A stretch of DNA of 5,734 nt from a virus (Duplodnaviria > Heunggongvirae > Uroviricota > Caudoviricetes), in the IMG/VR virus record IMGVR_UViG_2778261417_000002; one strand, given 5' to 3'. The notes under the pieces are model-generated. The model was not told the origin of the DNA and did no database searches. It worked only from the letters and a program-made list of their open reading frames with translations. This document shows, piece after piece, positions 1-5,734 of this stretch. Position 1 is the stretch's first letter; each line of letters opens with the position of its first letter. The translations under genes and the position numbers were made by a program.

Positions 1-3000
1 GGGAATGATTTGGATACTGTTTTAACAAAATCGCCTCTGACCTGATTCGCCTCCAGCATGCCCTTAATCGTACAGTTCTCATTTATCGTGACGTTGTTTA
101 GCGTCCCGGAGTTAGCATTCACACTGCCACTGATATCCGCATTTTTCGCCGTCAGTCGCCCGTCCGGTGCCAGGGAAAATGCCGGAGGATTACCGCCGCT
201 GGTAATGGTGGGAGCCGTCAGATATTTCAGGAACACGTCATTCATGAATATCTGATCGCCCTGACCAACAAACATCGGTTTTGTGTTGCCATTCGCAGGA
301 TTAACCATCGCTATCCTGTCTGCCGCCAGCAGCACCTGACTCTGCATGCCGTCGGGGGTGTTCTCAATACCGGCACCGATACCCGCAATATAAAGGCGTC
401 CGTCCTGCATCTGCTGCAGCTTCACAGCCCACATGCTGTTCAGGTTATTATTTGTATCAACCTGAACCTTCTGTATCTGCTGAATTGCCGCACTCTGGTC
501 TTCCAGTTTCTTATTGACGGTCTGCGTGATTTCATTGCTGACATCCGTAATGGATGTCCTGATTTCAGCCAGGTCAGGCGCAAGCTGACCGTTATCAATC
601 TGCGTCCACAGCTCCTGAGCCAGATGGGTTTTCCCTATCTCGCCTTTGAAAAAATCCAGATAGCCGGATGCATCATCACTCGGCTGACCAACAGCCTCCA
701 CGAATGCCGATTTGCCAACGGTGTTCACACTGCGAACGTAAAAATAATAATCATGGCCCGGTTTGATATTGATACTGGCGGCTATCCAGTACAGCGCCGT
801 ACCAAGATAGCGGGCTGTGGTTTCAACCTGCCTGATATCGGTAATCCGCTTTTCCGAGAACCAGAACTCAAACTGTACCGTCGGGTCATAAACGGCAAGA
901 TGCGGCGTGGCGGTTATCTGAAAATAGCCCGGCGTCAGCTCAATCCGCGACGGCACTGCAGGTGCGGCAATCCGGAACGATACCGACGCCGGATCGCCCC
1001 GCTGCCCCCGGGCATTTACCGCCCGGACTGTCAGCCTGTAGTTCCCCAGCGCCAGTTGTGTGAAGCGGTAAGTGGTTTCCGTCGTCCGGGCCGTGCTGAC
1101 CAGCCGCTCACTGCCGTCATCCGCTGTTACGGTCAGACGGAGCAGGAAGCTCACCCCCTTCACCACCTTCGGCGTGTCCCAGCGCGCCAGCACCTGATAT
1201 TCCCCGCTGTCTGCGGTGACTTCGGCAGTCAGGTGCTGCACCGCTGGCGGCGTGACACCATTCACCGTGCCGCTCTGGTCGCCGTCAAAGTGCGCCCCGT
1301 TATCCACGATGGCCTCTTTTTCCGGTACATGCTGCACGGCGGTGATGGCATACGTGCCGTCGTCATTCTCACGGATACTCACGCAGCGGAACAGGCGCTG
1401 GCGCAGCGTCGGCAGCTTCAGTCCCCACACGCTGTATTCGGCAACGCCGTCAGGAACCCGGCTCACTTTCACCTTCACGCCGTCGGTGACGGACTGAACC
1501 TCCACGCTGACCGGATTGCCACTTCCGTCAACCAGGCTTATCAGCGTGGTACCGGAGGATGGCAGCGTGATTTCACGGTCGAGCGTCAGCGTCCGGGTCT
1601 GGCTGTTCACCGCCAGCACGCGCCCGCCGGTGCGGATACCGGCATAGTCATCATCGCAGATTTCAATGACATCGCCCGGTACATGGCGAAGCCCTTCGGC
1701 ACCCACGCTGAAGTCCACGGTCTGCGTTTCCAGCAGTTCTGTTTTAATCAGCCACAGCCCGGCGCGGTGCGCCTGCCCCCGGCTGGTACAGCCAAAGGCA
1801 TCCATCTTCGTGACATTACGACCGTAACGGGCAATGGCCTGCGTGTCCTCCACAAGCTCTGTTGCCGTTTCCCAGCCGTTATCCGGGTCAATCCAGTTCA
1901 CCTCAACGGCATTATGGCGGTCCTTCAGGGCGCTGAAACTGTAGCGGAACGGCGCGCCATCATCCGGCATCACCACATTACTGCGGTTATAGGTCCACAC
2001 CTTATCCGACGGCCGGTCCTGCACGAACGTCAGCGTCTGCCCGTTCCATACCGGCATACAGCGCATCGCCGAGCAGAAATCACTGAGCACATCCCACGCC
2101 TTGCGCTGCGTGGTCAGGTACGCATTACAGGTGATACGCGGTTCCGTGCCACCAAAGCCATCCGGCACCGACTGGTCGCAATTCTGGCCGATGACATACA
2201 GCGCCCATTTATCCACATCCGCCGCACCAAGACGTTTCCCCATGCCGTAGCGCGGATGGGTCAGCATATCCCACAGACACCAGGCCATGTTGTTGCTGTA
2301 TGCCGGTTTTAACGTTCCGTCCCAGATACCGCTGTATTGTCGCGTCTGCGGGTTATAGTTCGACGGCACCTGCAGAATGCGCCCGCGAAGATGATAATTA
2401 CGGCTCACCTGCTGGCTGCCGAACTGCTCCGAGTCCACCTGCACGCCGACCAGTGCCGTGTTCGGGTAGCACTGTTTCACATCGATGATTTCGGTGTATG
2501 ACGACCAGAGCGTTTTGTTCTGCAGCTGGTCTGTGGTGCTGTCCGGCGTCATCCTGCGCATCCGGATATTGAACGGGCGCGGCGGCAGGTTACCCACCAC
2601 CACCGAGGCCAGATACTGTGAGGTGGTTTTGCCTTTAATGGTGATGTCTTTTTCCGTCACCCAGCCACCGTTACGTTGTATCTGAACCAGCAGGCGGACT
2701 TCCGACGGATTCCTGTCCCCCTTTGAGGTGGTTTCCACCAGTGCCTGCACGCCGAAGGTAAAACGCAGTCGGTCAATGTTTGCCGACGTGATGGTCCGGG
2801 TGATCGGCGTGTCGTATTTCACTTCCGTACCCAGCACCGCCTCGGAGCCGGAGGATTCAAATCCCTCCGGCGGTGTCTGCTCCTGCTCACCGGCCCGGAA
2901 CACCACCGTGACGCCGGAGATGTTGGTATTCCCCTCAGTGTCCAGCACTGGCGTACTGTTCAGCAGCACGCTTTTTAATCCATCCACCGGACCTTCAACC

Positions 3001-3101
3001 GGCCCTTCGCTGATGGCATCGATCACACTCAGCAACTGCGTGGACTTCAGGTTGTCCTTCGCTTCGCGCGGAGTATGCCCCTTACTGCTGCCTTTACCCA
3101 T
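1..3101 (-). CDS. J: Host specificity / tail tip attachment protein J (central tail fibre), N-terminal ~1033 codons; 3' end of the gene lies beyond the window start
   Basis: Minus-strand ATG at 3101..3099 translates [17 protein letters not shown], which matches my recollection of the lambda gpJ N-terminus. The frame (codon low ends divisible by 3) is still open at 258..231, where it reads [10 protein letters not shown], also a remembered gpJ segment, and at 3..59 (...[11 protein letters not shown]). No other minus-strand ORF appears in the track across 1..3161, consistent with one long frame that runs off the window and so was not listed. GGAG lies 8 nt upstream of the ATG. Lambda gpJ is 1132 aa, so roughly 100 C-terminal codons are missing. 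Confidence 0.93.
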
Positions 3102-3111
3102 TCCTCACGCT

Positions 3112-3143
3112 CCATAAACGACAAAACCGCCCGGAGGCGGTTT
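3112..3143 (-). terminator. Terminator-like or attenuator-like hairpin in the I-J intergenic spacer
   Basis: Perfect inverted repeat aaaccgcc (3124..3131) / ggcggttt (3136..3143) with 4-nt loop cgga. On the coding (minus) strand it reads AAACCGCC-TCCG-GGCGGTTT followed by TGTCGTTTAT, a T-rich tail. It lies 12-40 nt upstream of the J start codon in the 60-nt I-J gap. Confidence 0.3.
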
Positions 3144-3161
3144 CACATAAAACGTTTTTCA

Positions 3162-3809
3162 TCAGCGACCAATCACCACAACCTGACCACCATCCCCTTC
3201 GTCTGCCGTGCTGATCTCCTGAGAGACCACCCGCGACCCCACGCGCATTTCACCGTACAGAACGGGCAGAACATTGCCCTGGGCAACCATGTTATCCAGT
3301 GACGAGAAATACGTGTTCTGTTTGCCGTTATCTGTACTGGCTGCCGTGGGCGTCCTGGCTTTCGGTGCCAACATCTGCGCCACACCGCCCAGGATCATAC
3401 TGGCCCCTGCCGCATACATACCCGATACAGCCGTGGCCCCCAGCCAGCCCACAGGGTTCCACCATGCAACCGCAATCAGCGCCGCCCCCAGCACTGCCTG
3501 AAAAATACCGCCACTTTTAGCACCCGCCGGACGCGGTACGATGTGGATCACGGCACCATTTTCCAGCGGCTCATTAAGACGGGCAGACAATTCAGTTTCA
3601 CCTGCATCACGCCCGGCAATGCGTACCTGGTACCAGCCGTCGCTCAGTTTCTGACGAAATGCCGGGATCTGCATGGCCAGCGCCCGGATGGCTTCGGACC
3701 CCGTTTTCACTCGAAGGTCGATGCGGCGGCCAAATCGTTGTAAATCCCCGTAAAGGCAGATGCGTGCCATGCCCGGTGACGCCAGAGGGAGTGTGTGCGT
3801 CGCTGCCAT
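3162..3809 (-). CDS. I: Tail assembly protein I (gpI), ubiquitin-like N-terminal domain followed by a hydrophobic Gly/Ala-rich segment
   Basis: 215-aa minus-strand ORF, MAATHTLPLASPGMARICLYGDLQRFGRR...GGQVVVIGR, in the position of lambda gene I (lambda gpI is 223 aa from memory). ATG at 3809 is preceded by GAGAGAGG; an in-frame stop at 3845..3843 excludes a longer N-terminus. Stop is TGA at 3164..3162. Sits between K and J as in lambda. Confidence 0.9.
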   Translation of the reverse strand: MAATHTLPLASPGMARICLYGDLQRFGRRIDLRVKTGSEAIRALAMQIPAFRQKLSDGWYQVRIAGRDAGETELSARLNEPLENGAVIHIVPRPAGAKSGGIFQAVLGAALIAVAWWNPVGWLGATAVSGMYAAGASMILGGVAQMLAPKARTPTAASTDNGKQNTYFSSLDNMVAQGNVLPVLYGEMRVGSRVVSQEISTADEGDGGQVVVIGR

Positions 3810-4450
3810 TTGTCGGTGTACCTCTCTCGTTTGCTCAGTTGTTCAGGAATATGGTGCAGCAGCTCGCCGTCGCCGCAGTAAATAGCGGCATGATTCGGCA
3901 CCGATGAACCAAAACAGCACAGCAGCACATCGCCCGGCTGCGCCGCTGACAACGGCACCTGATACAGCCCTGTGGCCTCCAGATTATCCAGATAGAGATT
4001 CTGACCGTTACGCCACCAGTTATCCCCGCGATGAAAATCCGGCATCTCAATTCCCGCCAGATGGTAAGCGTCCCGGAACAGCGTGTAACAGTCCGTCACC
4101 CCGTGCTCAAAGCGCCGCCCGGTGAGATGCGGCACACAGCGGAATTTATGAATCGCCCCCCGGCAGACCAGCCACCACGGCAAATCACTCTGTACCTGCA
4201 GCCGCCGGTCGGCCTCACTCAGCCAGGGCAGACCACCGGGGTGGCTGTGGACCAGCGCCACAATCTCTCCCTGCATTTCTGCACTCAGCCAGTCCTCCGG
4301 CGACATCCGGAAATACGCCTCCGGCTCACCGGAGATATTCACGCAGGGAAAATATCTTTCCTCCTCCGGCGTTCTCACCACGAAGCCGCACGACTCCGCT
4401 GGCGCACATCGCCGGGCGTGCGCCAGAATCGCTGATTCTGTCTCTGTCAT
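3707..4450 (-). CDS. K: Tail assembly protein K (gpK), JAB/MPN metallopeptidase-like domain plus NlpC/P60 (C40) peptidase-like domain
   Basis: 247-aa minus-strand ORF. JAMM motif HSHPGGLPWLSEAD (H-x-H-x7-S-xx-D) at residues 68-81, with an upstream E-x-C-G element (PAESCGFVV, E20). NlpC/P60-like Cys/His/His candidates at C121 (DCYTLF), H187 and H199. ATG at 4450 lies 5 nt after the L stop, suggesting translational coupling. An alternative internal start is Met49 (ATG 4306..4304) with GGAGG 11 nt upstream, which would give the 199-aa product that I recall the lambda reference annotating. The 3' end overlaps I by 103 nt in a different frame. Confidence 0.88.
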   Translation of the reverse strand: MTETESAILAHARRCAPAESCGFVVRTPEEERYFPCVNISGEPEAYFRMSPEDWLSAEMQGEIVALVHSHPGGLPWLSEADRRLQVQSDLPWWLVCRGAIHKFRCVPHLTGRRFEHGVTDCYTLFRDAYHLAGIEMPDFHRGDNWWRNGQNLYLDNLEATGLYQVPLSAAQPGDVLLCCFGSSVPNHAAIYCGDGELLHHIPEQLSKRERYTDKWQRRTHSLWRHRAWHASAFTGIYNDLAAASTFE

Positions 4451-4455
4451 GGGAT

Positions 4456-5154
4456 TTACTGCGAAAGTTTGTTAATGGAAAGGAAGCTGCCAAAGTTGCC
4501 GACATTATTGCGAAACTTACAGCCACTCAGGCATTTGCTGCATTTATCCTTCGTGATATCGGACGTCGGCTGGTCATATTCATCCGCGACCGCCGGACCG
4601 CTATAACCGCACTCATCGCCGCGATAGGTCCAGGTGCAGGTGTTGGCCAGCATGATACGTCCCGGAAAAACAGCGCCATCCGTTTCAGTCGGCGTGGACA
4701 GTACAAAAGAGGCACTGACCGCGCTCAGTTCGCTGCACTGCTCGATGCGCCAGCGGCTGATCACCTCCTGCTCCGGATCGGCTTCGCTGTTTCCGTTGAC
4801 GAAGTTCACCGCATCCAGAAAGCGGGCGTAAACCTTACGCCGGACCACCGTTCCGCCGACCAGACTCTGCAGATCTTCCGCCATCCCGGTGATCATGCCG
4901 TGCAGGTTAGAGACCGTCAGTGTCGGACGGGCAGCACTGCCCTTGCCGTTCATCTCAAATCCACTCCCCTGAATGGGATAGGCCTGATACTGCCGACTCT
5001 GCCAGGTGACAGACTCACCTTTTTCGTTCTGCTCATTACAGAAAAAGTAGCGATCCCCGCCTACCTCGGTCAGGTCGATTTCCCAGAGCACCACGCTGGC
5101 CGACTGCTCCGCACGAATGCATTCATTCAGCGTTTCCTGTTGTATGTCCTGCAT
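4456..5154 (-). CDS. L: Minor tail protein L (gpL), tail tip protein with C-terminal cysteine cluster (Fe-S binding in lambda gpL)
   Basis: 232-aa minus-strand ORF, MQDIQQETLNECIRAEQSASVVLWEIDLTEVGG...FLSINKLSQ, the same length as lambda gpL and closely matching my recollection of it. C-terminal cysteines C173, C182, C205, C208, C212. Start ATG overlaps the M stop as TGATG (5156..5152). Confidence 0.93.
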   Translation of the reverse strand: MQDIQQETLNECIRAEQSASVVLWEIDLTEVGGDRYFFCNEQNEKGESVTWQSRQYQAYPIQGSGFEMNGKGSAARPTLTVSNLHGMITGMAEDLQSLVGGTVVRRKVYARFLDAVNFVNGNSEADPEQEVISRWRIEQCSELSAVSASFVLSTPTETDGAVFPGRIMLANTCTWTYRGDECGYSGPAVADEYDQPTSDITKDKCSKCLSGCKFRNNVGNFGSFLSINKLSQ

Positions 5155-5492
5155 CAGATCACCACTTCGTCAAACTGACACGAAAAATCGGTATAGGTGA
5201 TATGTTCTGTCGCTGACCACGTTCGACACACCACTCTGATTTTTCTGTTAATACCCGGCGGGCGCCAAAAAAAAGATTTATAGCCTTCATGCCGGGCTAA
5301 AAATTTTTCAAATGAATCACGTTCATTCGCCTCAACTTTGAAATCACAGGTGAAAACGCGCAGAGAATGATTAAGTCCATTTGGACTTCGTTGCTCATAA
5401 CCATCGCCAAATCTTACAGTTTTTATCGATGGTTTATTTTCTGTTTTCATTCCATCCTCTGGTAACCAGTGAAATTCTTCCGTATTAGCCAC
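5154..5492 (-). CDS. M: Minor tail protein M (gpM), divergent from lambda gpM
   Basis: 112-aa minus-strand ORF starting at GTG 5492..5490: MANTEEFHWLPEDGMKTENKPSIKTVRFGDGYEQRSPNGL...KSFFWRPPG...QFDEVVI. It aligns colinearly with my recollection of lambda gpM (109 aa: ...FRWKVKPGMD...VRFGDGYSQRAPAGL...KSFLWTPP...EFEQVVN) at roughly 50% identity. The GTG start overlaps the H stop by 8 nt and has GGGGGA 7 nt upstream. An alternative start is ATG 5450..5448 (GAGGA 4-5 nt upstream), giving 98 aa. Stop TGA at 5156..5154. Confidence 0.8.
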   Translation of the reverse strand: MANTEEFHWLPEDGMKTENKPSIKTVRFGDGYEQRSPNGLNHSLRVFTCDFKVEANERDSFEKFLARHEGYKSFFWRPPGINRKIRVVCRTWSATEHITYTDFSCQFDEVVI

Positions 5493-5734
5493 TTAACATT
5501 CCCCCATCACGTCGCATATTTAACAGATTGCCCTGCACCCGCTGATCAACCATCCCCATAAGTGCTTTTATTGCCTGAGGGCCAATCTCTCCATTCTGGC
5601 CGTCATTTTGAATAGTGATTTGGTATACAGGGGCATAGGTAATATCTCCGCCTCCATGGTAATGGTGCCAACTTACTGATTTAGTGTATGATGGTGTTTT
5701 TGAGGTGCTCCCGTGGCTTCCATCTCCATCAGTT
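5485..5734 (-). CDS. H: Tail length tape measure protein H (gpH-like), C-terminal fragment; 5' end beyond the window end
   Basis: Minus-strand frame with codon low ends at 1 mod 3 is open from the window edge to TAA at 5487..5485. I translated it by hand as ...TDGDGSHGSTSKTPSYTKSVSWHHYHGGGDITYAPVYQITIQNDGQNGEIGPQAIKALMGMVDQRVQGNLLNMRRDGGMLSG*. The call rests mainly on synteny (immediately upstream of M, overlapping its start, as H is in lambda). I cannot confirm sequence similarity to lambda gpH from memory. Confidence 0.6.
   Translation of the reverse strand, partial: TDGDGSHGSTSKTPSYTKSVSWHHYHGGGDITYAPVYQITIQNDGQNGEIGPQAIKALMGMVDQRVQGNLLNMRRDGGMLSG

Follow-up and report, generated by a model that had tools for sequence, protein, structure and literature searches.

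Results

A fixed joint between two phage structural modules at the M/L boundary

The short segment at positions 5154-5177 of the 5,734-nt window (the whole stretch of DNA that we analysed) is very probably where two phage structural modules that differ in ancestry were joined, in a mosaic joint that is now fixed and inherited. At this point an AT-rich virion module (41-51% GC) running from the terminase to M would abut a GC-rich (56-60%) tail-tip module of the lambda type, L-K-I-J, and hundreds of prophages in E. coli, Shigella and E. ruysiae have the same joint. A preliminary description made from the sequence had proposed a mosaic recombination junction with a crossover near the M stop and the L start. 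This proposal is supported by a step in identity, by a step in GC content, by the occurrence of the same L-J block beside different H-M types and by the low GC of the whole portal-to-M module in intact relatives, and the joint can be placed within about 10-25 nt.

All of the genes in the window, J, I, K, L, M and H, lie on the minus strand in the list of its open reading frames (Table 1). M is positioned between H, whose stop is at 5485, and L, whose start is at 5154, as expected for the gpM family, and the M stop and the L start overlap in the sequence ATGA, with one base common to both, an arrangement which is the same in lambda. The M protein matched PF05939 in the Pfam search over its full profile (positions 1-108 of 108, 1.2e-31) and matched the solved lambda gpM (PDB 8IYK chain M) over residues 6-111 (2e-25). 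Judged by these sequence matches and by its position, M is a true gpM homologue.

Table 1. Features of the 5,734-nt window, with coordinates, strand and the basis of each assignment.
Feature	Position	Strand	Basis and remarks
J (central tail fibre / host-specificity), N-terminal 1033 codons	1..3101	-	Open frame from 3101; gene cut by the window start; lambda-type
I (tail tip assembly/insertion protein)	3162..3809	-	Pfam Lambda_tail_I 4e-25; 103-nt overlap with K, same in lambda
K, full length 247 aa	3707..4450	-	Pfam Prok-JAB (N-terminal JAB/MPN) and NLPC_P60 (NlpC/P60)
L (hub protein), lambda-type, GC-rich; right-hand side of the joint	4456..5154	-	Pfam Phage_tail_L 7e-98
Junction segment: last 7 sense codons of M and stop	5154..5177	-	Contains the change-point of identity to lambda
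M (distal tail protein, gpM family), divergent AT-rich type; left-hand side of the joint	5154..5492	-	Pfam Phage_min_tail (PF05939)
H (tape-measure), last 57 codons, same AT-rich lineage as M	5485..5657	-	Upstream part truncated by IS1
IS1-family element, left terminal inverted repeat and insA start, inserted in H	5658..5734	+	Alignment to annotated IS1

Composition and identity to lambda both change in steps

The GC content per gene is 59.7% in I, 59.7% in K and 55.8% in L, against 41.0% in M and 46.8% in the 3' end of H, and third codon positions show the same contrast, with a GC of 0.674 for L and of 0.345 for M. A maximum-likelihood single change-point, fitted over positions 901-5657, was placed at 5115/5116 (2-lnL interval 5101-5152) and separated 59.3% from 42.8% GC with a log-likelihood ratio (LLR) of 26.4, while the largest value obtained in 300 codon-block shuffles was 9.7. 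The lowest GC content of any 480-nt stretch within 901-5153 was 55.4%, compared with 42.7% in 5178-5657 (Fisher p = 7e-12); at the other end of the window, positions 1-900 have about 50% GC. The GC step that had been suspected near M/L from hand counts is thus borne out by the windowed calculation and by the change-point, and the hand counts themselves were exact (40.0% GC at 5281-5340 and 56.7% at 4141-4200). The AT-rich region had been described as M and the H 3' end continuing to the end of the window, which does not hold, because the homology to phages ends at 5657 and is followed by IS1. M genes of other types have 53-57% GC (55.8% in lambda, 52.7% in Ayreon and 56.7% in Stx phages), so low GC is no general property of M genes and the step belongs to the joint.

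Identity to lambda also changes abruptly. Counted per 100 nt, most of 700-5165 is about 90-100% identical, and past that region the values are about 44-66%. The change-point analysis against lambda placed the change at 5165/5166 (2-lnL interval 5163-5177), with identity passing from 93.7% to 50.8% (LLR 208.6). This point falls inside the last 4-8 codons of M, and the drop is a step within about 15 nt, without a gradient. The preliminary description had put M at about half identical to lambda gpM; the divergence is real and the figure was somewhat high, since the proteins share 42% (44/105). It had also held that L, K, I and the N-terminus of J are nearly identical to lambda. This is accurate for L (217/232 amino acids, 94%; 91.7% of the DNA), for K (95.6% of nucleotides) and for residues 1-700 of J (98-99%), and does not extend to I, with 79% nucleotide and 83% amino acid identity and a divergent patch at about 3300-3650 (52-78%), nor to a 78% patch in L at 4901-5000. 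Residues 801-1033 of J (window 1-700) are 36-76% identical to lambda, with an insertion.

On the other side of the joint, the C-terminus of H, whose translation ends in ...NDGQNGEIGPQAIKA...MRRDGGMLSG*, shares only common motifs with H of lambda and of Stx phages; the motifs kept across H proteins are NDGxNGxIGP and MRxDGG..SG. Within M the block VRFGDGYxQR.P.GLN stands out, since four M types agree at 12 of its 16 positions.

The AT-rich partner is a head and tail-shaft module containing ydaY

Ten phage records match the M/H region at 5155-5657 with 99.8-100% identity, and many E. coli chromosomes are equally close to it. The prophage of E. coli 7/2, which adjoins ydfJ/ydfK/pinQ, is an intact relative in which M closes a long series of genes consisting of the terminase, a DUF4055 portal, a Mu-F-like minor head protein, a coat protein with the P22 fold, a tail terminator-like protein, the tube, ydaY, the tape measure and M. 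The portal-to-M module measures about 12 kb and is low in GC throughout, every gene having 41-51%, while L-J have 56-59%, like the whole left arm of lambda. No detectable relative of lambda V was found for its tube protein, and the nearest relatives of the tube are in Klebsiella phages (68-69%), followed by Pseudomonas and Acinetobacter phages. The AT-rich partner is not of the lambda, HK97, N15 or Stx type and is none of the references that had been named for comparison; its head and tail-shaft genes include ydaY and a coat protein with the P22 fold.

The Klebsiella phages ST846-OXA48phi9.2 and Kpn_R1 resemble this module in the tube (68-69%), the DUF4055 portal, the Mu-F-like head genes and the N-terminus of the tape measure (54-59%). 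Unlike it, they have a different tail tip of their own (a DUF1833 protein, among others), and they are not among the matches listed by a tblastn search of M against phages; with a tip of the DUF1833 type and no listed match to M, these phages do not supply the parent of M. The tape measure of E. coli 7/2 (locus L004, 13086-16319) is itself of two parts: its residues 1-354 are 54-59% identical to the tape measure of a Klebsiella phage, and the rest, towards the C-terminus, aligns at 28-36% with H of lambda, Ayreon and Stx phages, a distribution of similarity which suggests a chimeric tape measure with an older joint inside H.

Prophages of E. coli with ydaY, such as that of E. coli 7/2, have the same H-M-L joint as the window. 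The two are 98-100% identical over about 3600-5600, except for one bin with 96% (3801-3900), and 100% identical over 4401-5600, bin 4301-4400 having 99%; the 3' end of H up to 5657 is 100% identical to the E. coli 7/2 tape-measure gene. They differ in that E. coli 7/2 has no IS1 in H and in the central patch of I (3301-3500), where identity is 59-76%; the remaining J and I are about 91-100% identical. The Rac prophage of K-12 has retained ydaY as well, and presumably keeps remnants of the tape measure.

The database records carrying the M type of the window are all prophage predictions from clinical isolates, with no plaque-isolated phage among them, so that the function of the hybrid tail is inferred from the intact open reading frames and from the wide distribution. 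The record of Salmonella phage SPF_0923 (L001) is entered as a complete phage genome and has the bacterial manganese transporter genes sitC/sitD at 1-1047; this host flank marks it as a prophage prediction and no isolated phage.

The joint is widespread and old

The same junction, at up to 100% identity, was found in E. coli 7/2, in Shigella flexneri, in E. ruysiae and in about 60 IMG/VR prophages. In the S. flexneri locus identity is 100% across H-M-L (L008), and in Escherichia ruysiae it is 99% in H-M (L009). Of 5426 complete E. coli genomes, 721 carry the M/H type of the window (median, one copy), 671 of them at 99% identity or more. Among IMG/VR loci, 13 have an H-M which differs from that of the window in 23-37 of 480 bases (about 5-8%), and a lambda-type L adjoins in all 13. 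The joint therefore predates this divergence and is no event of the window's own genome: it is old and inherited, older than about 5% divergence within its lineage.

A parent combining the M type of the window with an L of another type was not found in tblastn searches of M against phages, species-representative genomes and IMG/VR. Wherever a locus of this M type continues beyond M, the adjoining L is of the lambda type, and the nearest other M type is only 49% identical. As no such parent was found, the original event is not reconstructable, and either the L-J block or the portal-to-M block may be the incomer.

L-side sequences are probably exchanged beside a nearly clonal M and H

The L-K-I-J block, at about 95% identity, adjoins at least three H-M types, those of lambda, of Ayreon/cdtI/PhiR55_1 and of the window, and a fourth M type, that of Stx phages, adjoins a more distant L (74% of nucleotides). 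Conversely, the M type of the window adjoins several L alleles. In 34 loci H-M is nearly that of the window, with no more than 2 differences over 480 nt, yet 21 of them differ from it at 9-64 of the 699 nt of L; in one locus the counts are 1/480 in H-M and 61/698 in L (Fisher p = 2e-13). In the loci that were checked base by base, the mismatches in L start at 5141, 5131, 5074/5068, 5055, 5038 or 4822, and in none of them do differences start upstream of the joint. Locus L042 combines an M that is 99.7% identical to that of the window with an L that is nearer to lambda L (97, 98 and 96% by thirds) than to the L of the window.

Possible partners for such exchange are the copies of lambda-type L, which was found in 4333 of the 5426 complete E. 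coli genomes, at 9534 places and mostly at 90-95% identity; the median is 2 copies per genome and the maximum 11. It is known from experiments that phage recombinases recombine diverged sequences efficiently and build mosaics with resident prophages (PMC3945230). On the simplest reading of these distributions, L-K-I-J would form a multi-copy pool with ongoing exchange of tracts, the cell would offer M/H no diverged partner, and homology would end on the left at the M/L joint. A single variant that spread recently, instead of missing recombination partners, may account for part of the near-clonality of H-M.

Fine structure of the joint

Positions 5154-5177 encode the end of M, QFDEVVI*, together with the ATGA overlap. 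This 24-nt island matches lambda at 19 of 24 positions, compared with 7 of 24 in the next 24 nt, and it is also conserved in M genes of the Stx type. Outside the island, the DNA of M is about 46% identical to lambda, which is background. Similarity to the window is lost at 5165-5176 in lambda-type phages; in Ayreon/cdtI/PhiR55_1 it is lost at 5106, in about codon 16 of L, and a 10-nt insertion lies between M and L. Given this second break and the spacer, the boundary is a zone and no single site. No Chi site was found in the window. The conservation of the island could come from constraint on the protein and on translational coupling alone, without any role in crossover.

An IS1 element interrupts H

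Positions 5658-5734, which begin GGTAATGGTGCCAACTTACTGATTTAGTG..., have the IS1 terminal inverted repeat GGTRATG..TGCCAACTTACTGATTTAGTGTATGATGGTG followed by the start of insA. They match one end of the IS1 annotated in locus L002 at 69 of 75 positions, on the same strand as its transposase CDS, and gave thousands of IS1 matches per search, while all matches to phages and prophages end at 5657. Only the first 77 nt of the element, which the preliminary description had overlooked, are covered by the window. The insertion lies 165 nt upstream of M and about 500 nt from the joint, and this prophage copy is defective, because IS1 interrupts H and only its last 57 codons are left beside M. The exact H/IS1 junction had no contiguous match in complete RefSeq E. 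coli genomes: the four records that reach 99% coverage do so in two joined pieces.

Discussion

How the joint may have formed and been maintained

We propose that the short conserved segment made up of the C-terminus of M (F-D/E-x-V-V) and the ATGA overlap either served the first crossover or is where its product was kept. Since then the joint would have acted as the left limit of homology to the other lambda-type tail-tip modules that are usually co-resident in E. coli, and homologous or homeologous recombination would keep replacing tracts of L-K-I-J without reaching the nearly clonal M and H. Temperate phages have been described to recombine homeologously with defective prophages resident in the host (PMC3945230, PMC2327257), and tail genes are known to be co-transferred (PMC9836094).

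The location of the joint may also be understood from the structure of the tail. In lambda, gpM forms a hexameric distal ring, in which the beta-sandwich contacts gpV and the E-loops stack on the ring of gpL HDI and gpJ HDII, and the C-terminal helix of H also sits in the tip (PMC10721106). [quoted passage not shown] Likewise, it would split the proteins that fit the shaft (tube, H and M) from those of the hub (L, J, I and K), so that the contact of M with L/J and the C-terminus of H would be expected to stay compatible. The conserved VRFGDGYxQR.P.GLN block of M and the motifs kept at the C-terminus of H agree with this. The block is a putative hub-contacting loop, and an M with 42% identity evidently still works with a lambda-type hub, as far as intact genes can tell.

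Alternative explanations of the joint

A different origin for the joint would be illegitimate joining at an arbitrary point, followed by selection for an intact M/L, with the island serving as no substrate (the model of Hendrix and Juhala). The background-level identity of M to lambda outside the island (about 46% of the DNA), the break at 5106 with a 10-nt M/L insertion in the Ayreon type, which speaks for no single fixed site, and the absence of a Chi site from the window all agree with such joining. We nevertheless hold it to be a possible but unlikely origin, since the island matches lambda at 19/24 positions against 7/24 immediately upstream, is common to the M genes of lambda, of the Stx type and of the window, and since phage recombinases use short diverged homologies, illegitimate exchange being much rarer (PMC3945230). 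Segment 5154-5177 could also be a dedicated linker or preferred crossover site, coupling any lambdoid H-M type to an L-K-I-J cassette that evolves in concert among the co-resident prophages of one E. coli genome; conversion would then stop sharply on the left at the M/L joint. We regard this as doubtful; if it were true, the tail tip would be a communal and exchangeable host-range unit, standing outside any single phage lineage.

The position of IS1, about 500 nt from the joint, and the several copies of lambda-type L per E. coli genome, which are possible partners, might instead point to a recent event particular to the genome of the window, for example between two resident prophages and possibly linked to IS1. 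This reading is refuted, and we consider it very improbable, because the identical joint without IS1 occurs at 100% in E. coli 7/2, in many genomes and in other species, and because lineages with 5-8% divergence in H-M have the joint too. It could also be argued that no recombination took place and that M and the 3' end of H are simply fast-evolving and AT-biased parts of a tail operon derived from lambda, M being the least conserved tail-tip protein across lambdoid phages (37-50% between types). Such an account is contradicted by the low GC of the whole 12-kb portal-to-M module, by a tube without detectable lambda V relative and with its nearest relatives in Klebsiella, Pseudomonas and Acinetobacter phages, by a change in identity that is a step within about 15 nt and by the 53-57% GC of the other M types, and we give it hardly any credence. 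As to an assembly artefact or chimera in the source record, the exact H/IS1 junction was not found in complete RefSeq E. coli genomes and nothing specific speaks in its favour; complete genomes assembled independently, hundreds of them, and viral contigs have the M/L junction as well, making an artefact next to impossible as the origin of the joint.

Comparison with known systems and significance

The window resembles M-L-K-I-J of lambda (PDB 8IYK/8K35; PMC10721106) in gene order, in the ATGA overlap, in the K/I overlap, in domain content and in the 94-99% identity of L, K and residues 1-700 of J. It differs in having an AT-rich M that is 42% identical, an H C-terminus that shares motifs only, and a K of 247 aa. 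As at other lambdoid module boundaries, to which the modular genome hypothesis applies, identity switches sharply from about 94% to background at a gene boundary, a block is found with different neighbours and the tail genes move as functional sub-modules. There is no difference in kind, the ydaY-type partner and the one-sided exchange being the particulars of this case: the joint is ordinary, already known textbook lambdoid mosaicism. It matters little beyond annotation, where it offers a clean and quantified module boundary inside a tail operon. The lambda-type tail-tip genes would be, in E. coli, a multi-copy pool that is still exchanging, while the shaft module attached to them stays clonal.

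Further mosaic patches in the tail-tip genes

Several other patches of different ancestry were seen in the window. In J, at about residues 800-1033, there is a second one, which is 94-100% identical to J of E. coli 7/2 over window positions 101-700 and 74% over 1-100; this distal patch is plausibly linked to receptor specificity. A third one occupies the centre of I, where positions 3401-3500 are 59% identical to E. coli 7/2 and 95% to the SPF_0923 prophage. The 5' third of L (window 4900-5150) exists as several alleles that are about 85% identical, namely those of the window, of SPF_0923, of lambda and of the Ayreon type, and these combine freely with one M type, that of the window. In lambda, the N-terminal third of L is the domain stacked on the ring of M. 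Finally, compared with window positions 4250-4450, the lambda reference (L003, 5120-5335) has a 1-nt deletion in K (GGAGGC-TATTTCC), and because of this deletion K of lambda is annotated as shorter, starting 148 nt after L.
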